64,000 nucleotides of DNA from a phage. The stretch is taken from the sequence record PZ583739.1. One strand, 5' to 3'. Below are positions 2,258-61,054 of the stretch, one piece after another. The stretch's first letter is position 1; the number at the start of each line of letters is the position of its first letter. The notes under the pieces were generated by a model, which was not told the DNA's origin, did no database searches, and saw only the letters and a program-made list of their open reading frames with translations. The position numbers were made by a program, and so were the translations under genes.

Positions 2258-3423
2258 CAGTTAAATCTATGCAGCGCGAAGGCTTTCCTAATATCAGCAT
2301 CCGCCTTTACGAAGATTATGATGCATGGCTTGAGCACCGTTTTGTGGAACTAGCTGCTACCTTTACAACGTTAACCATGCGCGATTCCCTTTACGGAAGA
2401 AATGAAGGTCTCTTGCAATTCTATGATACGAAAAACCTACATACAAAAATGAATGGTGAACAGGTTATTCAGATTTCCGTTAAGAATGCCAACTCTGACC
2501 GAACCCAATCTAGAATATATGGAAGTAAACACTTTGCCGTTTCCGTGGATTCAAAGGGTGATAACATAATTACAATTCAGTTGGCTCCTATTCACGAAAT
2601 TGAAGACTTGAAATTTAGTCGTATGTTTTACCCGAGCGTACAGGAAACATTAGTCGAAATGGCCGGGGTAATTTATCAAGATAGACCATTACTTTCCCCA
2701 CCAATAAACGGCATAAACGTTTATGCTCCTAACGTTCCATGGTGTGATTCGATGCACCAATATATGGAATTCATAAGGGAAGTTGGCCTGTCGGTAGAAA
2801 CTGATAAATTTGTTTTTGTATGGGAAGATATTGATGGGATAAGTATCCAGGATTATGAATGGTTAACATCACAAGAGCCAATTAATTTTGTGGTGGGGGA
2901 ACCTCGATTGGTTGGGCAATTTGTACAAAACCTGACTACTCCTTTAGCCTTCGATTTTGAATGGTTAACAAAGGCAAACCAACACACAAGAAAACCATAC
3001 GAAAACGCAACTGTGTATGCGCATTCATTCCTTGATAAGAACGCAACCAGAATAACTTTTGGGGAAGGACAAAACAGTATTCTGGTATCTCGTTCCGGTG
3101 GCTATGCAGATTACACATACCGAAATGGTTTCGAGGAAGCACAACGATTGATAACTATGTCACAATACGACGGTTACGCGCATTGCAAAACATACGGGAA
3201 CTTTGAACTGACCCCGGGTGATAAGATAAATTTCTTTGACCCTAAGAACCAATTCAAATATGATTTTTACGTAGACGAAGTTATTCATGAAGTGAGTAAC
3301 AATACATCAATTACAAACCTCTATATGTTTACCAATGGTAAGCCTATCGAAGTTGAAGAACCACCGAAGGTTAAAAATGAACTTAAAACTGATTCTGCCG
3401 ACGAAGAAAATACAGCTGGGTGA
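2254..3423 (+). CDS. 27: baseplate hub subunit gp27
   Basis: 389 aa; length and position match T4 gp27; ATGA overlap with gene 51 stop. Confidence 0.85.
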
Positions 3424-3895
3424 TAAAGAGATTCATGTTCCTAAGCTTGGTCTCAAGCATCACAATCTGATTAAAAACGAACCTAACCCATACGCTGCAT
3501 TAAGAAAGATTATGCAATCGATATTCCCTAATCTTACAGCAGCCGAATCCGACTTTGTATCTTTACATCTCCTGGAATTCAATGGTAAGCTAAAAGACAA
3601 ACGCGAGATTAATGGATTTACATATAAGCTGGATGATGTTTATATCTGTCAGCGCCTTGAATTTTCTTATCAAGGGAAGACATTTAAATTCCGCTCCAAT
3701 AAACCGTATGAAGAATTCGGACCAGTTGACAATCTCCTGGAGACCCTTTATCTCGGGGAAGATGTTCCAGACTTTCTGGATATGCCTGCTTTTGTTGCTA
3801 AGTGGGCAGACGATATCACAAGCACATTAGCAATCCCGGGCCCGAATGGTCCTGTTAAGGGGTTACTGAAAATAATGGAACTCCTAAATGAATAA
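3377..3895 (+). CDS. 28: baseplate hub distal subunit gp28
   Basis: Track ORF starts at ATG 3335 with no SD; ATG at 3377 has SD GAAGG and gives 172 aa, close to T4 gp28 (177 aa); start uncertain. Confidence 0.7.
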
Positions 3896-5633
3896 GAACT
3901 CCGAACAAACAAGCTTCAGACGCGGTGGACCTAATAAAAAGCTTATCGAAGAATTAGCACCACAAAGGAGGGCGGAAGCCCTCTCTGCTGAACAGAATGA
4001 TGAATTATCGAATCTGAATACAACCCTTACAAATACTCAGGCTGCAACCGAACTTGTATCGGAAGCTATTGAGGATAAGGGTAATCAGATTATTGAGAAT
4101 ATCCAAACCAATAATGGAGTCCTCCAGGATATCAGTGCTGGGGTCGAACTGACGGCCGAAGCCACCGAGAAGACTCAACAAGGGATTAAAAACCTCACGG
4201 ATATTCTCTCGGATAAGCTCGACAAACTCAGTGCAATGATAAGCGGTAAAATAGGCGTCACGTCTCCTGTGGCTGGTTCTGAAAGCCTTAAACCTGTGGA
4301 AAATGCACTACCAGAGCCTGAAGAGAATAAGCCCACAGCGAGCGTTCCGGCGCTCATACCGCCAGAAGAACAAAAGCCCGACGCTGACTTCATTCCGGAA
4401 CCAGAACAGCCAAAAACCGATGCAGAAGGTAAAGAGACTAATACCTGGTCACTTGGTGATAAGCTTGATACCCTTTCGAAGATAACCGAAAAAGGATTTA
4501 AGGCATCGGTTTCTGTTGCTGACCGAATCTCCGGGATGCTGTTCAAATATACAATTACGGCAGCAGCCGAAGCAGCCAAGCTTATTGGTGGATTATTGTT
4601 GTTGGTATTCGGTATCGATGCGATACGAGTTTACTTCCAATATTTCATGAAGCAATTCGAAAAAGGATGGGCCGAATTTAATGATAAGTTCAAAGAATGG
4701 GGTCCGTTGCTCGAAGGGTTAATGACCTGGGCTAAGAACGCTGAAGCTATGTTCAGTGAAAGAAATTGGCTTGGACTGGCAGAAGCTATTATCCGTGGAA
4801 TGGTCAACTTAACGAAGAATATGGCTCAACTTCTTATGCTTGGTATTTCAAAATTAATCTCGGCTATTTTAAGTAAAATCCCTGGGATGGGTGATTTAGC
4901 AGATAATGTGGAAGCCTCAGCTTTGATGTCTTATCAGCAAAATACAGGGGCAACTCTGGATGATGAAGACCAAACCAAGATAGCAAAATATCATGACAAA
5001 CGTTCGGCCGAAGCAATGGAAGCTGCAGAGAAGATGAATAAGAAGTATAAGGATAAACCTGAACTAATTAATCAAGCCGAAAAATATGGTAACCTTACCA
5101 AGGAACAAGCTGACCAGCTTCGCGCGGGTGGGATTGACACAAGCTTCAGAGACCTTCCGGAAGAAGAACGTCTGGACTATTTCAAGAAGCGTGACAAAGC
5201 ACAGGCTGATATTATTCGTTTGACCCAAACTGCTGACAACCTAATGAAGCCAGACGCAACCGATAAAAAGAATGCGATGGAAATGAGAGCTAACATTGAA
5301 AAACAATTAGCTGACCCAGCTATGGCAAAAGGTGGAGCTCCGAAAGACCTGAATATGCGCACCCTGTTGGAAAAACTTGATAAGTCTCTCGAGAAGTTCA
5401 AAGACGAACCGAAAGTTAAACCGCCGGATGTTAAGACTTCTCCGGATGCACAACAAGCTGCGAAGGTTGACGAAGGTATGAAGGCCAAAGAAAATAAATA
5501 CAAGGATGCACCAGCTCAGGCACAAATTAACACGGTCAATAATATTCAGAAGACTTCCAGGACGCAATACAATATGCCTCCTCAAAGTTCAACCCCTGCC
5601 CCTGGCATGAGACAGGCCACGAGAATTAACTAA
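3888..5633 (+). CDS. 29: baseplate hub subunit / tail length determinant gp29
   Basis: 581 aa; coiled-coil and hydrophobic central segment; length and position match T4 gp29. Confidence 0.8.
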   Translation: MNKNSEQTSFRRGGPNKKLIEELAPQRRAEALSAEQNDELSNLNTTLTNTQAATELVSEAIEDKGNQIIENIQTNNGVLQDISAGVELTAEATEKTQQGIKNLTDILSDKLDKLSAMISGKIGVTSPVAGSESLKPVENALPEPEENKPTASVPALIPPEEQKPDADFIPEPEQPKTDAEGKETNTWSLGDKLDTLSKITEKGFKASVSVADRISGMLFKYTITAAAEAAKLIGGLLLLVFGIDAIRVYFQYFMKQFEKGWAEFNDKFKEWGPLLEGLMTWAKNAEAMFSERNWLGLAEAIIRGMVNLTKNMAQLLMLGISKLISAILSKIPGMGDLADNVEASALMSYQQNTGATLDDEDQTKIAKYHDKRSAEAMEAAEKMNKKYKDKPELINQAEKYGNLTKEQADQLRAGGIDTSFRDLPEEERLDYFKKRDKAQADIIRLTQTADNLMKPDATDKKNAMEMRANIEKQLADPAMAKGGAPKDLNMRTLLEKLDKSLEKFKDEPKVKPPDVKTSPDAQQAAKVDEGMKAKENKYKDAPAQAQINTVNNIQKTSRTQYNMPPQSSTPAPGMRQATRIN

Positions 5634-8076: not shown

Positions 8077-10143
8077 CTACGAAAGGAATTTAGGAGGAAT
8101 AGCTTCCAAATTAATACAACTAGCAAGAATACCAAGCCCTTGATTGACTTTCTTCGTTACCCCAGAGGATGCAAACGATGCAAAGTCAACAGATTCTACT
8201 GGCTCTTCTGTTTCCTCGCCCTGATAAACGACAAGCTCACCAGTTTCCATCAACACATCACCATCATAGATAACTGCATTTTCAGCCAGCATTTCGGTAG
8301 TCTGGATATCAGCTTCCAACAGTTTGACGTTTGCGTTTCCTTTATACGATGCATCGGTAATCTTGGTAATCTTAACTACAGTCCCACGAGGAAGAATAAC
8401 TTCCTGCTCGGATGTGTTGTTAGATAATTGACCAGGAAGAATGACGTTAATTAAATCAGCTCCAGAGATTTTCCAACCGACATGCATCATTGCATTATCA
8501 GGATTTGCCCCAGGAATATTAGGAAGCACAATTTCCTCGTCACCCTGGAAAGTGGTTCCATCGCGATAATCCTGATGAACTGCAGCCATAGCAACGTTTG
8601 CAACCCAACCGCCAAAGATAATCGGTTTAAGGGATGTTGATACATAGTTACGGAAATAAAATAACTTCGACTGCTTAATTTTATTAAACGTAGGAACGTT
8701 TAGATATTGACCACGCCATAGAGTAATATCTGGAGGTAGTTTTTGACCAACCTCAAATGCCGAGTCCATCACTTTTATTTTATGTGCAACATCTTTAGCG
8801 CTATTAAGGAATTCAGCTTCTTCCTCGTAATAATTACCCATCAAATAATTGTTGATGTCAATATAGTTAACGCCACAATAGCCCATGATTGTTCCTTTTT
8901 GACTTACGGTAAAACGGGCTGCTTCATTGTAGCTACTAACGAAATTCAAGATACTTTCGGTGGAGTCGTCTGCAAAATCATTAACTGCCGCACGAATTCC
9001 CGCAGTATATTCTTTTTCCCAAAGCTCTGCTGCATATTCGGCTGCATTTAGATTTGGTGGAGCAGAAGCCATTTGTTTTTCGATAAATGCGGCTTTACGT
9101 AGATTAAGAACCTCAGCACATGACTCAGCAAAAATCTGCATCTGCTTCATACTGCCAACCGGAGCACGTTTAAGTTCACGGTGCATGCGATTAAAAATAG
9201 GGTCAGTATCTTCAATACGAATTTCTTCTTTCCACACCCCGTTAGAACGCATAGCATAATCTGCTGCTTTCATACGGAACATCGCATTAGCATCCGATGG
9301 TTTAATAATAGTTTGTAATTCTTTATAATTCTTTATTGGTTCAGCAGTTACCGGTTTGCTAAATTTAGCAGCTTCTGCATCAATTTCATCCCAACCTTCG
9401 GGAACTTCATCTCGAGGTGCATACTGGGCCTGTGCGATAGCTCTGCGACTGATTTTTGTTTTCTGTGCAACAGAAGCATCAGTCTTTTTGTTTGCTGCAT
9501 CAATCAGAATCTCGGCCGCGATTTCTTGGTTGGAAACCTGTGTACCTGTATCTTTATCAGTGAATACATCGCCAACTTTAGTTTCGACTTTTTGATATTT
9601 CGCAGGGACTGGTGGCATACCATCAACCGAAAGCAGGTCAACACCTTTTTTGTACATAATTACGTATGCGTTCTTTTTACCAAGGCCAGAAGCATTCGGA
9701 AGAACACGATAACGGCCACCAGTTTTCATCTGAATCAGTCGAGTCATAATACGAATAACAGCTTGCTCTTGTCCTTTCATCTTTTTGGATGGGAAACGGA
9801 ACAATACTACATCTGGTTTGCCTAGTTTAATGCTTTCCCAGACAGTAGTAAAAATCAGGTTAATCGCATCAATAGGTTTTTCACCTAAACCGCCTTTCAG
9901 AGGAACAGCATGACCGTGTGAAGTACCGGAGAGCAGGAATACCTCAGCAATCGCATCGCCACGTTTATATTGTTTAACAGTTTCTTTGCCCGTGAATTGC
10001 ATCAAACGAGCCATAAGAGAATCTGTACCAGGAACAGCGAAGTGCCACACCTGTGGTACTTTATATTTCGGGTTCATATCAATGACAGGGTAGTTCAGAC
10101 CTTCTGTATCGGTGTCAAAGAGTTCATTTAATTGTTCAGACAT
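8077..10143 (-). CDS. alt: Alt ADP-ribosyltransferase (virion-packaged)
   Basis: 688 aa vs T4 Alt 682 aa; position between gene 54 and gene 30 as in T4; preceded by late promoter. Confidence 0.8.
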   Translation of the reverse strand: MSEQLNELFDTDTEGLNYPVIDMNPKYKVPQVWHFAVPGTDSLMARLMQFTGKETVKQYKRGDAIAEVFLLSGTSHGHAVPLKGGLGEKPIDAINLIFTTVWESIKLGKPDVVLFRFPSKKMKGQEQAVIRIMTRLIQMKTGGRYRVLPNASGLGKKNAYVIMYKKGVDLLSVDGMPPVPAKYQKVETKVGDVFTDKDTGTQVSNQEIAAEILIDAANKKTDASVAQKTKISRRAIAQAQYAPRDEVPEGWDEIDAEAAKFSKPVTAEPIKNYKELQTIIKPSDANAMFRMKAADYAMRSNGVWKEEIRIEDTDPIFNRMHRELKRAPVGSMKQMQIFAESCAEVLNLRKAAFIEKQMASAPPNLNAAEYAAELWEKEYTAGIRAAVNDFADDSTESILNFVSSYNEAARFTVSQKGTIMGYCGVNYIDINNYLMGNYYEEEAEFLNSAKDVAHKIKVMDSAFEVGQKLPPDITLWRGQYLNVPTFNKIKQSKLFYFRNYVSTSLKPIIFGGWVANVAMAAVHQDYRDGTTFQGDEEIVLPNIPGANPDNAMMHVGWKISGADLINVILPGQLSNNTSEQEVILPRGTVVKITKITDASYKGNANVKLLEADIQTTEMLAENAVIYDGDVLMETGELVVYQGEETEEPVESVDFASFASSGVTKKVNQGLGILASCINLEAIPPKFLS

Positions 10144-48360: not shown

Positions 48361-48457
48361 AGTCTTTATCTATCTTATTACCAATAAACATACCAACAAT
48401 CACACCTGCGATTGCCGCGAAAATACAAAGCAATGCAAACTCAACTCCAAAACTCAT
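48359..48457 (-). CDS. small hydrophobic peptide (32 aa), not in the ORF track
   Basis: MSFGVEFALLCIFAAIAGVIVGMFIGNKIDKD directly downstream of gene 52; speculative. Confidence 0.3.
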   Translation of the reverse strand: MSFGVEFALLCIFAAIAGVIVGMFIGNKIDKD

Positions 48458-49833
48458 AGAGCCTCCAAATCATTAAGGTATTCAGTTTTAACATCAGTTG
48501 TCTTCCAGTACTCATGCTCAGCTTTCTTAGCCTTTGCTTCGTCTGCAAGCTTCTTGGCTTCATCAGAGGTCATATGGTAGATGTTCATCGCCACTAACTT
48601 CTCTGCATAATCGCCATATATTTCACTCGCCTGGAGTTCCTCAATCAACTTCTTACGAGGTTTCCCCTGGATAATAACCTTACCATCAATCACTTCTTTA
48701 ATAAAGAAGACTTTCGCACGGGCCAGTTTAAATGCCGCTTCAGTTTCTTTAATCTTGCTGTCAATTCGCACTTGAACATAGGTCTTACGGACATCCACGA
48801 AATCGCGAATCAGGTCAAGCGTGTTGGTGTATTCAGCTAATTTGCCTTTGTGATTAAGCACAGTTAAGTTCTGGGAGAGTTTCTCAATCAGACCAAAGTC
48901 TTTCATGATTTTCTCATGATTCTCTTCTTCAGTGCCATCCAACTTGTATTCTTTGCGGAATTTAATCTTAAACCCAAAACCATGTTCACCGCAGTTATCT
49001 TTCCAGGTGATAAAACCTTTCTCTTCCAGCGGGTCAAGTATTTTACTTGTATATTTTTCCAGGTTCCATTGGACCGGGATTTCAGTAATTTCCATTTGAG
49101 TCCGGGAAGTCATTTTGTATGTGCCATGAAGCTCATACTTACCAGGCTCTTCCAGCTCAACAACTTCACCGCGGAATTCTGGATATTTTACTTTCGGAGC
49201 AACCGGCTCACGACCTTCCACGATAGCTTTAACAGCTTCCTTGACGTCCTGGAACGAATGAGGAAGTATATCAGTAGCGAAGCCAACAGCAATCCCAGAA
49301 GTGGCGTTAAGTAATACAGTAGGAATAACAGGAAGATAAAAAGCAGGAGGCTTATGTTCTTCATCAGGATGGACCGGAGCATATTCTGTATCCTTAAACA
49401 AGTTATAAAAGTTCTTTGAAACCCTTGCGAATACATAACGAGCTGATGATGCTTCTGGCACCATTCTGGAACCAAAGTTGCCTTGTCCATCAAACATGGG
49501 GTATTCATTTTTATATGTTGCGACCAGACCAGAAGTTGCTTCTTCCGCTGATGCTTCGCCATGGTGATAACCATAATCAGCTACGCCACCTGCGATGGAT
49601 GCAACCTTATGGAATTTATTCTTATCACCACGAGCCAGGTCTAATGCTCTCGCCATAACAAATCTGTGAACTGGTTTAAAACCATCAATCATGTTTGGGA
49701 TGGCACGACCTTCCACAGTGTAGATAGCATATGACAATGCTTCCACATCAATAATGTCTTTTAGACTGCGTGGGTTAAGGGTCCCCACGGAATCACTGAA
49801 CTGTTTGGACATCATACTTAAAACGTCAGACAT
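48454..49833 (-). CDS. 52: DNA topoisomerase II medium subunit gp52
   Basis: 459 aa; GyrA-like N-terminal region (GFKPVHRFVMARALD...ASIAGGVADYGYHHGEAS); position after motA as in T4. Confidence 0.9.
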   Translation of the reverse strand: MSDVLSMMSKQFSDSVGTLNPRSLKDIIDVEALSYAIYTVEGRAIPNMIDGFKPVHRFVMARALDLARGDKNKFHKVASIAGGVADYGYHHGEASAEEATSGLVATYKNEYPMFDGQGNFGSRMVPEASSARYVFARVSKNFYNLFKDTEYAPVHPDEEHKPPAFYLPVIPTVLLNATSGIAVGFATDILPHSFQDVKEAVKAIVEGREPVAPKVKYPEFRGEVVELEEPGKYELHGTYKMTSRTQMEITEIPVQWNLEKYTSKILDPLEEKGFITWKDNCGEHGFGFKIKFRKEYKLDGTEEENHEKIMKDFGLIEKLSQNLTVLNHKGKLAEYTNTLDLIRDFVDVRKTYVQVRIDSKIKETEAAFKLARAKVFFIKEVIDGKVIIQGKPRKKLIEELQASEIYGDYAEKLVAMNIYHMTSDEAKKLADEAKAKKAEHEYWKTTDVKTEYLNDLEAL

Positions 49834-53741: not shown

Positions 53742-54713
53742 TTAAAATTGTTCAGTTACATCATCAAGGACCAGGTAACCACAGACCCTCATCTTACTAT
53801 CCCCATAATCCACCGGGATACTTACAACATCACGCGGGTGAACTTTACAGGATACGATGCGTCCATCACCATGACCAAAACCACTTCCGATATAGCCTTT
53901 AGAGCAAACATGCAACCCGGTTGAACAGGTCTGTTCGTCATTGTCATTCACACGAGAGCGCGGCATTTTAACATATTGACCAGGGCTGTTGTCGAATGTG
54001 TTTGAGTGACAATCTTTGTAAGTTGCACGAACCATTTTCCATGCGATGAAATGACCGTCTTCGGTGATTTCGATATCGTTTGCAACCAGGAAGTCAAACA
54101 AACGCTGTACAGCTTTCTCACTCGGATTCTCAAGGAGATTCTCAAGGAACGGCAGATAGAATTCAAAGTCTTCACCATTTTGCATTGAATCAATGATACG
54201 AGTAACCAGGCCAGAGCGCAGTTCAATTCCCTGATAGAACAAACTACCACCTTCAATACGCACATCACCTTTCACATATTTTTGTACTGCAGCTTTGATT
54301 GAGATAAACTCGATAGCATCTTCATAACGGAATTCAATCAATGCCTGAATAATATCATCAAAGTGTTTATGGTCTTTTGTTGCGTTCCAGACTGTACGGC
54401 CTTCAGTGATGGAAACGAATTTACTCGATGCGTTCCATACGATTTCCGGGCGGCTTCCACCGATTGTATCAGTAACCGGGACTTCAACCGTTACTGTCAC
54501 CGGAGCATTAATCGCCACGCCAACAGCTGCTTTCAGTGATGCAGAAATGGTTTTAGCTAATTTTGATTCTTTATCATTTTTCAAAACGCGGCGAATGGTG
54601 TCGACGGACACGGCAAAATATTCTGCCAATTCAGGCTGGGTATAATTGCCTGTTGAATACATCTGGACCACATCAGCTTGTTCGGCTTTAGACATACATT
54701 TGATATTAAACAT
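53742..54713 (-). CDS. rIIB: rIIB protein
   Basis: 323 aa; MFNIKCMSKAEQADVVQMYSTGNYTQPELAEYFAVSVDTIRRVLKN and the C-terminal half closely match T4 rIIB. Confidence 0.9.
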   Translation of the reverse strand: MFNIKCMSKAEQADVVQMYSTGNYTQPELAEYFAVSVDTIRRVLKNDKESKLAKTISASLKAAVGVAINAPVTVTVEVPVTDTIGGSRPEIVWNASSKFVSITEGRTVWNATKDHKHFDDIIQALIEFRYEDAIEFISIKAAVQKYVKGDVRIEGGSLFYQGIELRSGLVTRIIDSMQNGEDFEFYLPFLENLLENPSEKAVQRLFDFLVANDIEITEDGHFIAWKMVRATYKDCHSNTFDNSPGQYVKMPRSRVNDNDEQTCSTGLHVCSKGYIGSGFGHGDGRIVSCKVHPRDVVSIPVDYGDSKMRVCGYLVLDDVTEQF

Positions 54714-54714
54714 A

Positions 54715-56949
54715 TTATTCCTTATTGGCCGCTTCCACGGCCTTCATGATTTGAGCAACGTTCTGTACTTGTTCAGTTGACATAGCGTTACGGTTATATA
54801 AAAAGTGTGAAACAATCGGGTGATTCTTTTCAAATTCAAAAACCATTTTATCGCTTGTTACTGAAGCGTTTTTGGTCAGGTCGTAATAAATCTTATTACA
54901 AAGGACCAGTGTTTCCTGCATGGTTTTATCAACCGTTCCACTGTTATATGCGTTATAAGCAAAGAACTTATTGAACTGCATTAGTTCGGCATAGTCAGTA
55001 TTCACATCTTTCTGAACATCTTTTGCATAAAAATACTTGAACATAAAATTCAGTTCTGCATATTCAGACAGGATAGGAATATAATAACGCGAACGGCTTG
55101 AAGCGGCAATGTACTGGTCCACATCAACCGCATCAATCAATTCTACATAACGATTGACCGCAGCTTCAATCAGACAATCACACTGCGTCAGCTTGGTAAC
55201 CTTTTTCTGAAGCTGTGGACGAATAACACAGAATTCATTGATTTCCAACAGGTTTGCCAGTTTACACAATGTCTGGGTCCCGAAGGTCGTGGTGCCATAT
55301 TCCTGATTCAACGGGGAAATGCTACTGCGGTTAATGAATACAGCATAACCATCGATTTCCTCTGCATCAGCTGCACATGTAAATTCTTCAACAGACTGCC
55401 ATTTGCCATTAGTTTTAGTCCAACGAATCACCGATGGAGTCTTTGACTTAACACGCTCTTTCGGGTCCGCAACCGGAATCCAGTCTTTTACAAGGGCAGT
55501 CAGTTCAGACGTACGATAGATATTAACTGTATCGCCTTTAAATCGTTCCTGGAGTTGAACCATCAACCGTGTTTGAATTTCGCTGGTCGGGTCAACAAAC
55601 AGTAAACTACTACCCTGACGAGTCGGGACTTTACCAGATGCAATAAGCTTTTTGGCTTTTGCACTGGTATCATACAACATTGAACTGATACCGCGAATCA
55701 TCGCAATTCGCCCTTTAACATCATCAATAACAATGTTCAAGGTATCATTCTGAATACCAAACATGCTCGTCAGACTTGCTGTGTTCGAGTTTGAGCTTGA
55801 GTTGCGCAGACGTTTCAGACGAGTGTCACGATAGATATCATAAACAACCCCGGCATTAATAAGGTCTTTGTCCAGCTCGAACATTTCGTACATCTGGTTA
55901 AAGGTCAATTGTGATTTCGTAAATTTCGTTTCAGCATTACGAGCTTTCAGAAAATTACGAGCTTCATAATTCAGATTCTGCAATTCGCGATATGTATGGC
56001 GGAGACATTCTGATTCCTGCCATTTCTTACAATCGTCTTCCATGACTTTCTTATCAAGGGTTTCAATACGTTCAACGATATTTGCGACCGTACGTTTGTC
56101 CAGCGATAATGCTTCACGAGAAGGTGCGATATCCAGCGAACCCATCGGGAACTTAATAAAGACAACATCATTTTTGGCAGTCATCCAGGTTTTCTTTGTA
56201 TACCCGCCATCAATCGGATAAACAATTCCGCCATAAATTGCATAAAGTCCATAACGTTCTGGGCTGCTATAATCAATACGCTCTGGAGCATAATAATCAT
56301 CAAATTCCGGGAAATAATTAATTTCGCCTACGCCTTGTACTTCAGCCAGTCCAGCAAATGGGCGCATGATATATGCAATCTCGTGGCGGAACTTACCAAA
56401 ATCATTACTATCAACCGGGACAACAACTTCAATCCCTGTGCGGTCGCCAGGTTTCATTGGTTCGCTAAAGGTTGGCTTAATCTGTGGACCATCGCCGTCC
56501 ATATAAGCGACATAACCATTAACTTGACCATCATGATATGAAATCAGGCTAAACGTCTCTGTATAACTGAACGGAGATTTAGAACCCAGACCAAAGCCAC
56601 CAATAAAATCGTTGGATTCAGCCTTGGATGATGCAAAGAAACTGTTATACAGACCTGGGGTATTTTCATCACCACGAATCTGGAAATCACTCATACCTGG
56701 ACCAAAGTCACGACATACAAAACGTGGGTCCAGTTCGCCAGGAGCTTGAACAATGAATTTATCCTGACAGCCATTGAGCATATGAGCATCAATCATATTG
56801 GTAATCAGCTCACGAACAACCGCGCGCACCTTGTTTGTATAAAGGTCGCTGGTCAGAATCTTAAACACCTTTGGAGATGCCTGGATTGTGAATGCTGATG
56901 CTTTGGCACCATTACCAAGGATTGTTTCTTTTTCAGTTTCTAAAATCAT
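54715..56949 (-). CDS. rIIA: rIIA protein (GHKL-type ATPase fold)
   Basis: 744 aa; ETILGNGAKASAFTIQAS...RELITNMIDAH...FIGGFGLGSKSPF match T4 rIIA. Confidence 0.9.
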   Translation of the reverse strand: MILETEKETILGNGAKASAFTIQASPKVFKILTSDLYTNKVRAVVRELITNMIDAHMLNGCQDKFIVQAPGELDPRFVCRDFGPGMSDFQIRGDENTPGLYNSFFASSKAESNDFIGGFGLGSKSPFSYTETFSLISYHDGQVNGYVAYMDGDGPQIKPTFSEPMKPGDRTGIEVVVPVDSNDFGKFRHEIAYIMRPFAGLAEVQGVGEINYFPEFDDYYAPERIDYSSPERYGLYAIYGGIVYPIDGGYTKKTWMTAKNDVVFIKFPMGSLDIAPSREALSLDKRTVANIVERIETLDKKVMEDDCKKWQESECLRHTYRELQNLNYEARNFLKARNAETKFTKSQLTFNQMYEMFELDKDLINAGVVYDIYRDTRLKRLRNSSSNSNTASLTSMFGIQNDTLNIVIDDVKGRIAMIRGISSMLYDTSAKAKKLIASGKVPTRQGSSLLFVDPTSEIQTRLMVQLQERFKGDTVNIYRTSELTALVKDWIPVADPKERVKSKTPSVIRWTKTNGKWQSVEEFTCAADAEEIDGYAVFINRSSISPLNQEYGTTTFGTQTLCKLANLLEINEFCVIRPQLQKKVTKLTQCDCLIEAAVNRYVELIDAVDVDQYIAASSRSRYYIPILSEYAELNFMFKYFYAKDVQKDVNTDYAELMQFNKFFAYNAYNSGTVDKTMQETLVLCNKIYYDLTKNASVTSDKMVFEFEKNHPIVSHFLYNRNAMSTEQVQNVAQIMKAVEAANKE

Positions 56950-56956
56950 GTTTTTC

Positions 56957-57166
56957 TCACTTTATGTTACGTTTGATTAATTCTGCAACTTCAAGAAGTT
57001 CATCCTTTGTTGCGGTGTCTGAAGCTATTTTAATACGGATTTCTTTGAAGCGTTCTTTAAACTCTTCAGCTTCTCTTATATCAAAAAATCGTTGGATAAC
57101 ACGGTATTCTTTATGGATAGCCTTATCAAACAGTTCCATATTAACTTTGAAGTTCGTCATTTCCAA
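56957..57166 (-). CDS. hypothetical protein
   Basis: 69 aa ORF between gene 39 and rIIA. Confidence 0.4.
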   Translation of the reverse strand: MEMTNFKVNMELFDKAIHKEYRVIQRFFDIREAEEFKERFKEIRIKIASDTATKDELLEVAELIKRNIK

Positions 57167-57425
57167 TCTCCTGCAATATTTTTCTCATACTACGCATGGT
57201 AGCTTTATGTTCTTGGCCATGGTATATCAATGCAAGGAGTGCTTCAATTCGCTCCTCAGGGACCTTCTGGCCAGCCTTAATGCTCATGGCTGTTGTTCTT
57301 ACCGCTAACAAGTAACTTCGCTTCCTGTCGTTATCTGGGAGCCCCTGCACCTTCCTCAGGCCTGCTTCCATAATACACCGTGCGACATTTTGCAGATTAA
57401 CTAAACTTCCGTCAGACATAATCAT
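57141..57425 (-). CDS. hypothetical protein
   Basis: 94 aa ORF downstream of the early promoter at 57443-57471. Confidence 0.4.
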   Translation of the reverse strand: MIMSDGSLVNLQNVARCIMEAGLRKVQGLPDNDRKRSYLLAVRTTAMSIKAGQKVPEERIEALLALIYHGQEHKATMRSMRKILQEIGNDELQS

Positions 57426-57442
57426 ATTTTCACCTCAAAGAC

Positions 57443-57497
57443 ATATTAACACACTTTTTGTGGCTTGTACATAATAAAAAAGGACCCGAAGGTCCTT
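57443..57497 (-). promoter_or_regulatory. terminator hairpin followed by early promoter (PeSL-like cassette)
   Basis: Minus strand aggacc-ttcg-ggtcct hairpin plus TTTTTTATT, then TGTACA, 17 nt, TAATAT. Confidence 0.5.
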
Positions 57498-57501
57498 TTG
57501 G

Positions 57502-57654
57502 CTACTCAACTTTATAGACTTGCCCATATGCGGTATAGTATTCACCATCCCAGGTCTCGCACATAATGGTGACAAAGGATGCAAACAGAGGTTTAGTCTC
57601 GGCCCACAGATAACCGTATTCGCCATTTGACAACGTAACCCACCACTTTTTCAT
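57502..57654 (-). CDS. small ORF (50 aa), not in the ORF track
   Basis: ATG at 57652-57654 with SD AGGAGAAG; MKKWWVTLSNGEYGYLWAETKPLF...; preferred over the overlapping track ORF 57435..57626. Confidence 0.35.
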   Translation of the reverse strand: MKKWWVTLSNGEYGYLWAETKPLFASFVTIMCETWDGEYYTAYGQVYKVE

Positions 57655-57693
57655 GGACTTCTCCTATAAGACGGGAGAATATTCTCCCGTATC

Positions 57694-57701
57694 TATTTAT
57701 A
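57694..57701 (-). promoter_or_regulatory. T4-type late promoter motif (TATAAATA) overlapping the gene 39 stop
   Basis: Minus strand TATAAATA immediately upstream of a 20-bp palindrome and the small ORF at 57502..57654. Confidence 0.4.
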
Positions 57702-59529
57702 GCGTCGCATTCATCCAGTCTTTACGCTGCTGGGAATCTTTACCGAATAGCATTTCGAACAGTTCTTTCCAATTGTCGGGCAATTGAACAACTTCGAATA
57801 CTGGCTCGAGCAATACGCGTTTGTACTCTGAATCTTCCAGAGAACCAAGCCCCTTGATATATCGAATGGTATGCTTCGGAAGTTTATCCTTAGCTTCTTC
57901 GTAATCAGGAAGAGAATAGAACCATTCTTGTTTATCTTTGAGCTGTGCAATAATAACAGGAGTTTTCACAAAGCGAATTCGTCCTTCATGGAACAGCTCT
58001 GGCCAGTTACTGAAAAACGCCAATAACGATGGATAGATACTACCAACACCATCCACATCCGCATCTGTCATGATAGCAATGTTTCGGTAATTCATATTCT
58101 CGGCCGGTTGTCCAATCGTTAAACCAGTAATCGCACACACATCAAAGGCTTCAGCGTTCTTCATAACTTCAACAGCTTTCAGACCCCATGTGTTTTTAAA
58201 CTTACCACGTAACGGATAAGCACCTTGCAATTCACGGTCACGAACCTTGATAAACGGACCCGTTGCAGAATCTCCTTCGGTCAGGAATAGAGTCGTTTCC
58301 AGCTTATCATTACCCCATTCGTTGGCTTTGATATGCTTTTGTACCTTGGCCTTTGAAGCTTTCTTATTTGCTTTAGTCTCTGCTGCTTTCTCTGCAGCCA
58401 ATTTACGAGCCAATGCAGCTTCAATGATAGGCGTCAGAATAGCTTCTGATTTTAACAACGAACCAGCTAACTTTTTGCCATCAACCTGGATATGTGATTT
58501 AATTTCACCGGCAGGTGAAGTCAATCGCTCCTTAGTCTGGGAATCAAATCGCATGTTCTTCATATTGCGAATAAACATCAACAATGTAATACATTCTTTA
58601 ACGCGTGCTTTGGTTACTTCAATTTTATACTTGCGTTTAATCGCCGGGATTAACACATCACACATTTCATCCATAACACATTCAATATGGTGACCACCAT
58701 TTTTTGTATGGATTCCGTTAACATAAGTCACATGACGGAAACCATCGGGTGACCGACCAATTGCAATTGAGCAATTATCTTGTTCCTGAATAATGATTTC
58801 ATCATCGTATTGCTTGGCATATTTTTTAAAGTGACCTTGCACTTTTTTACCATTGAACTTGAATTCGATATCCGGATAAATGACTGCAAGAGTCTGGATT
58901 TGGTCAAGCATAATTTGGACATATGTTTCGTCAAAACCAGACGTTTCAAAATTCGAAAAATCCGGAATAAATTTAACTTTAGTTCCTTGCAACTTTGATG
59001 GTTTTGATTTCCATGAAATATTATCAAGTCCATTTGAACAATTAACGGTTAATTCATTTTTCCCATCTGATGTAGTGCCTGTGAACAATATTGAAAAAAT
59101 ATTGGTAAGACTGGACCCAACTCCGTTCATCCCAGTGGTAACACGATTTGCATCATCACTAAAGTTTCCACCCGAACGAACCTTGGTCCATGCAGCGACC
59201 GGCCCAGGAATTTCTTCGCCTTCTGGGGTTACAACAATCGCCTGTGGAATGCCTCGACCATTATCTTCAACGGTCACTTCGTTTGTTTTGATATCAATAT
59301 TCAATGAAATTTTGTTTGCAAATTTAAAATTGGTGCGAATAGCTTCATCAATAGAGTTATTTGCAATTTCTTCGATTAATTTAATTAAACCTGGAACGTA
59401 TTGAACCTTTTTATATTCACCAAACAGAAAAATTTCTTTGTCTTCATTGGTAACACTACCGATGTACATTGATGGGCGAGCTTTTACGTGAGCTACATCA
59501 GAAAGGATTTGAATTTCATTCTTAATCAT
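57697..59529 (-). CDS. 39: DNA topoisomerase II large subunit, fused gp39/gp60 form (GyrB-like ATPase)
   Basis: 610 aa continuous ORF; GHKL ATPase motifs (NSIDEA, EDNGRGIP) at the N-terminus; longer than T4 gp39 (516 aa), consistent with the gp60 part being fused. Confidence 0.9.
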   Translation of the reverse strand: MIKNEIQILSDVAHVKARPSMYIGSVTNEDKEIFLFGEYKKVQYVPGLIKLIEEIANNSIDEAIRTNFKFANKISLNIDIKTNEVTVEDNGRGIPQAIVVTPEGEEIPGPVAAWTKVRSGGNFSDDANRVTTGMNGVGSSLTNIFSILFTGTTSDGKNELTVNCSNGLDNISWKSKPSKLQGTKVKFIPDFSNFETSGFDETYVQIMLDQIQTLAVIYPDIEFKFNGKKVQGHFKKYAKQYDDEIIIQEQDNCSIAIGRSPDGFRHVTYVNGIHTKNGGHHIECVMDEMCDVLIPAIKRKYKIEVTKARVKECITLLMFIRNMKNMRFDSQTKERLTSPAGEIKSHIQVDGKKLAGSLLKSEAILTPIIEAALARKLAAEKAAETKANKKASKAKVQKHIKANEWGNDKLETTLFLTEGDSATGPFIKVRDRELQGAYPLRGKFKNTWGLKAVEVMKNAEAFDVCAITGLTIGQPAENMNYRNIAIMTDADVDGVGSIYPSLLAFFSNWPELFHEGRIRFVKTPVIIAQLKDKQEWFYSLPDYEEAKDKLPKHTIRYIKGLGSLEDSEYKRVLLEPVFEVVQLPDNWKELFEMLFGKDSQQRKDWMNATL

Positions 59530-60322
59530 TTTTGACCTCTAAATTTTTAGTATAACCTAAACATTTCCAACTGGACCATTTTACATCATCGGAATTGCAG
59601 CGTTTTCGTAATGTAGGATAACTAATACCAAGAACTTCGGCGGCTTCTTTTCGGGTTGTGAATATGACCCCATTTATAGAGTACGTTTTAGCCTCGGGAT
59701 TTTTATCACCAGAGAATAATTTTGATAATTTATCTTTGTGTTCAAGAGAAAGATGTTTGCCAAAGAAATGATGATTTTCGCCTGCTTTACGCAGGGAGAC
59801 ATTATAACCAAAATCATCGGGGTATGGCTTTCTTTTAACACCAGTTCCATATATTCTATTATATTCGGTTTTATCTAACAGTTTATTCCGTTTTTTAACG
59901 GCTTCGCCTTTAAGTAAATTAATTTCCGCTTTTCTTGGATGATTGGACATTGTGTCACCACCAAAATCCGCCAACGTTATATTATAACCGTTTTTGATAG
60001 AATTTAATTCAGTTATCCAGAAACTTTCTCTTTTCAAGAAATATTTTTTATTATAAACTTCTATATTTTCTATTAGTTTGCATACAAATGATTCTTTACC
60101 GTATTTGTCATATGCAAACTGTAAATGGCTGTTTATGCCAACACCTTTGGATAAATTCCGAAAATGCGTGGCAATTCTACGATGAAAATCATTTGAACTT
60201 CCTATATAATATTTTTGAGATATTAAATTATAAATTATATAAATCCCACTATTTCCACTCGATGGTGGAATATAATCAGGAAATTTATTTTTTATTATCC
60301 CGAATACTTCATTAATCATCAT
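59522..60322 (-). mobile_element. GIY-YIG homing endonuclease (Seg-like) gene
   Basis: 266 aa; GIYIIYNLISQKYYIGSS GIY-YIG motif; C-terminal helix-turn-helix-like segment EAAEVLGISYPTLRKR; overlaps the gene 39 start by 8 nt. Confidence 0.75.
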
Positions 60323-60344
60323 CTTTCCTCTTGTGTATGGAGGT

Positions 60345-60370
60345 ATTATAAGTCACATGTTTTAAAGCAA
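60345..60370 (-). promoter_or_regulatory. MotA-box middle promoter upstream of the homing endonuclease gene
   Basis: Minus strand TTGCTTTA, 12 nt, TATAAT, then SD AAGAGGAAAG and ATG. Confidence 0.45.
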
Positions 60371-60388
60371 AAAGGCCCGAAGGCCTTT
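60368..60388 (-). terminator. rho-independent terminator
   Basis: ggcc-ttcg-ggcc hairpin flanked by T-runs, directly after the stop of 60388..60786. Confidence 0.55.
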
Positions 60389-60786
60389 TATTTGAATCGA
60401 AGCTGCTCTAACATTTTAATAGCTTGTAGACGGCCGGCTTCAGTTTTAACCGTAATAATAACATCGCCGCCAGTAACAACGATATCCTCTTTTGATTCCT
60501 GTTCGGTTATTTCAGAATCACATTCCGGGACTTCTTCAAAATATTTAAATTCATCACCAAAAATAAGACCGGTTCCATTACGACTATGGAAAGAAAATCC
60601 AGTTCCATCGATAGTACTAAATTCCGTAACAACATTTGCTTCCATCTTAGTGACTGAAAACTCTTTGGTAGTAACCAAATCAATGATAGAGGTTCCCTGT
60701 TGGTTCAAAATGCTACCAGGCATACCAACATGTTTAAGGAAGCCATCTAAATCTTTAATGTGATAACTCTTTCCAATTTTAAACAT
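60388..60786 (-). CDS. hypothetical protein
   Basis: 132 aa ORF. Confidence 0.45.
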   Translation of the reverse strand: MFKIGKSYHIKDLDGFLKHVGMPGSILNQQGTSIIDLVTTKEFSVTKMEANVVTEFSTIDGTGFSFHSRNGTGLIFGDEFKYFEEVPECDSEITEQESKEDIVVTGGDVIITVKTEAGRLQAIKMLEQLRFK

Positions 60787-60793
60787 AATATCC

Positions 60794-61054
60794 TCATTCG
60801 AATCGGATGGTTGAATTCTTAAACAGCAATCCAGAACAAACAGTTCCTTTAACTTTCTTACCAGTTGGCCCTACGGCCGTAAAGCCTGTGTGTTGGAAAT
60901 CATCTTCAGAGCAACCCAACCAGTTATAACCGGTGATTTGGATTTGTTCATAGCCGTTTGCATCTAATACACGAATGGCATTATCTGCATCAGTACAACT
61001 AGCCAATGAAACCGCCAGTACCAGTGCTGCAATAGAACGATTAATGTATTTCAT
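60794..61054 (-). CDS. small lipoprotein
   Basis: 86 aa; signal peptide MKYINRSIAALVLAVSLASC with lipobox LASC; SD GAGGAT. Confidence 0.55.
   Translation of the reverse strand: MKYINRSIAALVLAVSLASCTDADNAIRVLDANGYEQIQITGYNWLGCSEDDFQHTGFTAVGPTGKKVKGTVCSGLLFKNSTIRFE

Follow-up and report, generated by a model that had tools for sequence, protein, structure and literature searches.

An unsplit topoisomerase large-subunit gene and the endonuclease gene at its start in a Gaprivervirus genome

The topoisomerases of phages T2 and T6 are made of two subunits, and an enzyme of three subunits is known only from T4 (PMC11461880). The large subunit of the T6/T2 enzyme, gp39, is a chain of 605 aa with gp52 as its partner (PDB 8ylu; PMC11461880), and crystal and cryo-EM structures have been deposited for the T6 protein (8ylu and related entries). 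In T4, gp39 and gp60 together correspond to this same subunit, the part bearing the EGDSA motif being carried by gp39 and the DxDxD motif by gp60. The T4 arrangement comprises mobA, gene 60.1, a C-terminal extension of gp39 and an N-terminal extension of gp60, as well as a GGA-UAG take-off site, a hairpin and a 50-nt gap. This MobA/bypass element is considered to be mobile, recent and derived, the unsplit gene representing the "parental" form, and it has been reported in 28 genomic sequences, none of them described from Gaprivervirus (bioRxiv 10.1101/2022.08.31.505936).

Here we describe the corresponding locus in a stretch of 64,000 nucleotides of phage DNA (record PZ583739.1), analysed as a whole and referred to as the window. 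It is part of the genome of a Gaprivervirus, a T4-like coliphage (Straboviridae, Tevenvirinae), and its backbone is closest to phage vB_EcoM_RZ, to which the first 25 kb are 96.6% identical. No tRNAs were found in the window. A 688-aa ORF at 8077-10143 (minus strand), with an ADP-ribosyltransferase exoenzyme domain, probably encodes an Alt-like protein.

The large-subunit gene and its relatives

The neighbourhood of the gene is that of T4 (rIIB, rIIA, rIIA.1, 39, 39.1, 39.2), with two small conserved ORFs between rIIA.1 and gene 39, where T4 has gene 60. Homologues of 39.1, 39.2, goF, cef and motB lie upstream of gene 39, and the partner subunit is encoded about 8 kb away from it, with a match to PHROG 551 (E = 1.7e-201).

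48454..49833, minus strand: gene 52 homologue, GyrA-like DNA breakage-reunion subunit, 459 aa (Pfam DNA_topoisoIV, E = 5.4e-77)
53742-54713: rIIB
54715-56949: rIIA
56957-57166: rIIA.1
57141-57425, minus strand: 94-aa ORF, DUF7367
57502-57654, minus strand: 50-aa ORF, PHROG 4369
57697..59529, minus strand: gene 39 homologue, unsplit large (GyrB-like) subunit of a phage type IIA topoisomerase, 610 aa, ATG start
58960..59388, minus strand: GHKL ATPase domain, residues 48-190 (Pfam HATPase_c, E = 3.3e-8)
58372..58737, minus strand: transducer domain, residues 265-386 (Pfam DNA_gyraseB, E = 2.5e-13)
58045..58293, minus strand: Toprim domain, residues 413-495 (Pfam Toprim, 17.1 bits, sub-threshold)
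57706..57963, minus strand: C-terminal Toprim-associated domain, residues 523-608 (Pfam TOPRIM_C, E = 1.3e-8)

The ORF at 57697..59529, the strand of which had been omitted from an earlier note on this DNA, contains no in-frame stops and starts 6 nt downstream of a GAGG Shine-Dalgarno sequence. It matches PHROG 543, "DNA topoisomerase II large subunit" (E = 5.8e-267), and its N-terminus can be aligned with T4 and T6 gp39 from residue 1 on. The GHKL (Bergerat) ATPase domain presents the N-box EIANNSIDE (E54, N58, D61), as read from the translation. Its G1 and G2 boxes were located by a script at residues 89 (DNGRG) and 133 (GMNGVG), as was the QTK loop of the transducer domain, including its lysine, at residues 331-333. 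HATPase_c, DNA_gyraseB and TOPRIM_C all score above their own cut-offs. The Toprim match stays under its cut-off of 23.1 bits; despite this score the region is fully covered by the T4 and T6 alignments and by motifs: a script located the catalytic EGDSA at residue 418 and, on the same polypeptide, the metal-binding DADVD at 489-493. On its sequence, the protein is classed as the predicted ATPase/Toprim subunit of a type IIA topoisomerase, the group of GyrB, ParE and phage gp39.

The closest structural match is T6 gp39, with which the ORF aligns collinearly from residue 1 to residue 607 (residues 1-604 of structure 8ylu_C, E = 3e-298). The two proteins are of similar length and have the same domain order, but their sequences have diverged, with small indels of 2 aa (around residue 75) and 1 aa (around residue 408). 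The ORF is about 70% identical to the unsplit genes of Tequatrovirus and belongs to a different genus, and unlike T6/T2 gp39 its N-terminal ~330 aa represent an allele that is found elsewhere only in phage P479.

The T4 proteins, namely gp39 and gp60 minus the 50-nt gap, were taken from NC_000866 and compared with the 610-aa ORF by BLASTP. Residues 1-473 of gp39 correspond to residues 1-476 of the ORF (68.5% identity, E = 0), and residues 28-159 of gp60 to residues 476-607 (132 aa, 70.5% identity, E = 4e-70), similarities that lie far beyond chance and argue for homology with both T4 proteins. The gp60 alignment begins where that of gp39 ends, at residue 476, with zero extra residues in between, and what in T4 is distributed over gp39 and gp60 stands here on one chain, the TOPRIM_C region (523-608) being the counterpart of the C-terminal part of gp60. 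The earlier note had proposed that one continuous ORF of 610 aa encodes the whole large subunit, which is borne out by the abutting alignments and the uninterrupted frame. It had suggested comparing the first 450 aa with gp39 and the C-terminal portion with gp60, dissimilarity to gp60 being a ground for rejection; the C-terminal 132 aa are in fact 70% identical to gp60, and the split point at about 450 aa has to be moved to a junction at about residue 476.

How common is this arrangement? A gene 39 product of 609-610 aa occurs in 5/5 Gaprivervirus relatives examined (P479, RZ, SP18, VR26 and VR7). In the phage collection the protein has a match in 2227 records, of which 1991 align with 80% or more of its length at a single place, a count that includes some endonuclease-interrupted genes, nearby alignment pieces being joined; among 40 records sampled at even intervals the match was in more than one piece in four, most of these being interrupted by endonuclease genes. 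In turn, of the 499 records with a match to the T4 gene 60-60.1-mobA DNA, only 41 contain 80% or more of it, and the partial matches in the sampled rows are limited to the 3'-terminal 336 nt of gene 60, beyond the bypass. Within the collection, the T4 insert DNA is confined to Tequatrovirus-like records. Taken with the literature, the Gaprivervirus survey and these counts therefore make the arrangement described here an already known and ordinary one: an unsplit large-subunit gene is the normal and long-known state in T4-like phages, and the T4 split is the exception.

Gene names in the databases are a separate matter. The gp39 gene of Shigella phage SP18 (L004 3611-5443) encodes a full-length protein of 610 aa and is annotated as "topoisomerase II large subunit N-terminal region", a misleading name inherited from the split gene of T4.

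An endonuclease gene and a mosaic tract at the start of gene 39

Directly upstream of gene 39, and overlapping its start, lies a gene for a protein related to I-TevI, the endonuclease encoded in the td intron of T4.

59522..60322, minus strand: free-standing I-TevI-like GIY-YIG homing endonuclease gene, 266 aa (Pfam GIY-YIG, E = 3.5e-11)
60323..60388, minus strand: native gene 39 upstream region, now that of the endonuclease gene (comparison with SP18)
58535..60358, minus strand: block of about 1.8 kb made up of the endonuclease gene plus ~1 kb at the 5' end of gene 39 (99.6% identical to P479)

The protein shares with I-TevI a GIY-YIG catalytic domain, NUMOD3 (25.6 bits, cut-off 20.4) and a C-terminal DNA-binding domain of I-TevI type (I-TevI_DNA-bd, 25.1 bits, just under the cut-off of 27). 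It is 37% identical to residues 3-240 of T4 I-TevI, the C-terminus included, and the alignment keeps GIY, Y(I/V)G, R, E (in RE.FWI.ELN) and N (in NGYNI). Y6, Y17, R27, E75 and N90 of I-TevI, which we take to be the characteristic positions of the family, are aligned with identical residues. The two proteins also differ: I-TevI has a Cys-containing zinc-finger segment that is absent here, its place being taken by an alignment gap, and the phage protein has an N-terminal extension of 24 aa, which opens with the first four codons of gene 39. No group I intron was found by Rfam between 56500 and 62000, where two sub-threshold matches were due to chance; the gene is therefore free-standing, in an arrangement resembling that of the Seg-type genes, unlike the intron-encoded I-TevI. 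Its closest relative in the phage collection is that of P479, the next best being 43% identical, and no relative above 33% identity was found in IMG/VR. The cassette represents a new case of a known type, that of the free-standing phage homing endonucleases.

The way in which this gene is set into the locus can be read from SP18, which lacks it. In SP18, a hairpin is followed by TTTGCTTTA, 12 nt, TATAAT, AGAGGAAAG and then ATGATGATTAATAATGAAATT, which is the start of gene 39 (MMINNEI). The region 60323..60388 of the window contains the same succession of elements, i.e., a hairpin with a T run after it (AAGGCCTTCGGGCCTTTTT), the MotA-box-like TTTGCTTTA, TATAAT and the Shine-Dalgarno sequence AGAGGAAAG, and the window equals SP18 through ATGATGATTAAT, bar one base, after which the body of the endonuclease gene begins. 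On this match, therefore, the endonuclease gene is read as borrowing the upstream signals of gene 39, its Shine-Dalgarno sequence, its ATG and its first four codons (MMIN). At the other end, the stop codon of the endonuclease gene overlaps the start of gene 39 within ATGATTAA, which is present twice, at 60312-60319 and at 59522-59529, and its 3' end contributes the new GAGG in front of gene 39, together with the ATGATTAAG at which gene 39 starts.

A generic scan for sigma-70 promoters and terminators over 57400-60900 gave counts at chance level and listed neither the upstream hairpin nor the putative promoter. Since the scan did not list it, we infer the putative middle promoter 5' of the endonuclease gene from its likeness to the MotA-box consensus of T4 and from its conservation in SP18 and T4.

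The same slot is occupied by an unrelated gene of Endonuclease_7/HNH type in RZ, VR26 and VR7, and by none in SP18. In these three phages the gene was inserted a few bases further upstream, directly after TATAATACCTCC.

RZ (L003), 3666-4373: Endonuclease_7/HNH-type gene
VR26 (L005), 3128-3886: Endonuclease_7/HNH-type gene
VR7 (L006), 3191-3886: Endonuclease_7/HNH-type gene

Endonuclease genes of different families have landed repeatedly at the start of gene 39.

Another presence/absence polymorphism of the gene 39 locus concerns an ORF of 132 aa at 60388-60786 (minus strand), which belongs to PHROG 622 and whose C-terminal part weakly resembles a goF family. It is present in the window and in SP18, has a similar counterpart at the same position in RZ, and is absent from P479, VR26 and VR7.

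The endonuclease gene is embedded in a tract with a history of its own. The block 58535..60358 differs from P479 by 7 mismatches in 1824 nt, with identity falling to about 95% downstream, and upstream of it the window is 96.8% identical to RZ and only 90% to P479. Furthermore, the first 700-1100 nt of gene 39 are only 56-78% identical to RZ, SP18, VR26 and VR7, whereas its last ~700 nt are 92-100% identical to the same phages; beyond P479, the next best match of the N-terminal ~330 aa is found in a Klebsiella phage (83.7%). Given this P479-like 5' tract on an RZ-like backbone, the topoisomerase ORF is read as a recombinant chimera, in which a P479-type allele has been joined, together with the endonuclease gene, to the backbone.

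Free-standing homing endonucleases of phages are associated with mosaic tracts in the adjacent essential gene. A plausible account, which complements the reading of the topoisomerase gene given below and to which we incline slightly, is that the first ~1 kb of gene 39 arrived with the endonuclease gene through homing and co-conversion. The block at 99.6% between flanks at about 90-95%, and the drop in identity to the other Gapriverviruses from the 3' to the 5' part of a gene on an RZ-like backbone, are consistent with it, as are the position of the cassette inside the first codons of the ancestral gene, the reuse of its Shine-Dalgarno sequence and ATG, the conservation of the presumed catalytic positions of I-TevI, and the filling of the slot by Endonuclease_7-type genes in RZ, VR26 and VR7 while it stays empty in SP18. 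However, ordinary homologous recombination during co-infection could yield the same mosaic with no endonuclease activity involved, and just two phages are known to carry the cassette, that of the window and P479. The mosaic looks like the signature expected from homing with co-conversion, one that plain recombination could also produce.

At its fullest, this account would describe an active or recently active homing cassette, which inserts at the first codons of gene 39, seizes its promoter, Shine-Dalgarno sequence and start, supplies a replacement start, and has moved from a P479-like to an RZ-like backbone along with a divergent, presumably cleavage-immune allele of the N-terminal ATPase region. 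From the sequences compared here, such a description has about as much in its favour as against it.

The empty MobA/bypass site and the history of the gene

The alignments with T4, together with the codons, delimit the place that the element would occupy.

58042..58104, minus strand: empty equivalent of the T4 MobA/bypass insertion site (T4 alignments, codons)

One end of this site is A476 (58102-58104), the junction of the gp39 and gp60 alignments. At the bypass-equivalent position, 58042-58053, stand D493 (GAT), G494 (GGT), V495 (GTT) and G496 (GGT). T4 presents there GAT GGA UAG, a hairpin and, after the 50-nt gap, GGA UUA; the window has GAT GGT GTT GGT, with neither a UAG nor a 50-nt insert at 58042-58053. 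The take-off hairpin motif of T4 has no match in the whole window with up to three mismatches allowed, and RNA folding at the bypass-equivalent site is no better than that of shuffled sequence (z = 0.09), while the T4 control sequence folds into the expected take-off hairpin. The absence of the bypass hairpin and of the take-off and landing GGA codons, as proposed in the earlier note, thus holds.

Likewise, no mobA (an HNH endonuclease gene) or pseudogene of it lies between the two parts of the ORF, which is uninterrupted, and BLASTP revealed no counterpart in the ORF of the last 43 aa of T4 gp39 or of the first 27 aa of gp60. The ORF is accordingly free of mobA, gene 60.1 and both protein extensions, as well as of the GGA-UAG site, hairpin and gap. 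A separate gp60-like ORF, which would have spoken against an unsplit gene and which the earlier note had not expected, was not encountered: tblastn with T4 gp39 and gp60 over the whole window detected no second gp39- or gp60-like ORF, the best other match having E = 0.39. The complete genome of Escherichia phage P479, whose protein is 99.5% identical, contains a single place matching the large subunit. By these sequence comparisons the ORF does not belong with the split large subunits of T4 type.

An uninterrupted gene could in principle also result from the re-fusion of a split one after a "hit and run" by MobA. Re-fusion cases do exist, in Aeromonas phages (bioRxiv 10.1101/2022.08.31.505936). 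However, known re-fusions retain C- and N-terminal extensions derived from the element, about 70 extra aa, and none are present at residue 476; in addition, the alignment of the ORF with T6 gp39 contains indels of 1-2 aa only. Because remnants of the extensions are absent, re-fusion is excluded as a working explanation and we consider it highly improbable. The "hit and run" candidate was also confronted directly with residues 470-495, which have no similarity to the T4 extensions, and is effectively refuted. That the gene is a decayed, non-functional one that merely happens to be still open is scarcely credible, since all catalytic motifs are intact, identity to the functional proteins of T4 and T6 is 68-70% along the entire chain, and the full length is conserved throughout the genus.

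The reading that accounts for the locus is therefore that of a gene never split: the ORF is almost certainly the complete GyrB-like subunit of the Gaprivervirus type IIA topoisomerase, and its gene has almost certainly never received the MobA/bypass element. The GHKL ATPase, the transducer, the Toprim domain and the C-terminal tail are all part of one gene 39 polypeptide, which, by analogy with T2 and T6, would assemble with the gp52 homologue into a two-subunit A2B2 enzyme. Such an enzyme would use ATP to open one DNA duplex transiently, by a break in both strands, and to lead a second duplex through the opening; relaxation and decatenation are its predicted activities, judging from the T6 and T4 enzymes, for which structures and assays are available (PMC11461880). 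With an element never acquired by gene 39, neither the reassembly of the subunit nor ribosomal bypassing would be needed.

What the locus means for T4-like phages

As far as the topoisomerase itself is concerned, the finding is of little consequence: the phage would have a standard two-subunit enzyme of T2/T6 type, and the MobA/bypass site of its gene is empty. It serves as a reminder that the split gene of T4 is a derived oddity, and that database names copied from T4 mislead. The endonuclease cassette, in turn, adds a further case of the large-subunit gene attracting homing endonucleases, with the insertion located here at the start codon and not in the Toprim domain, and it could help in studying how free-standing endonucleases enter essential genes without killing them.
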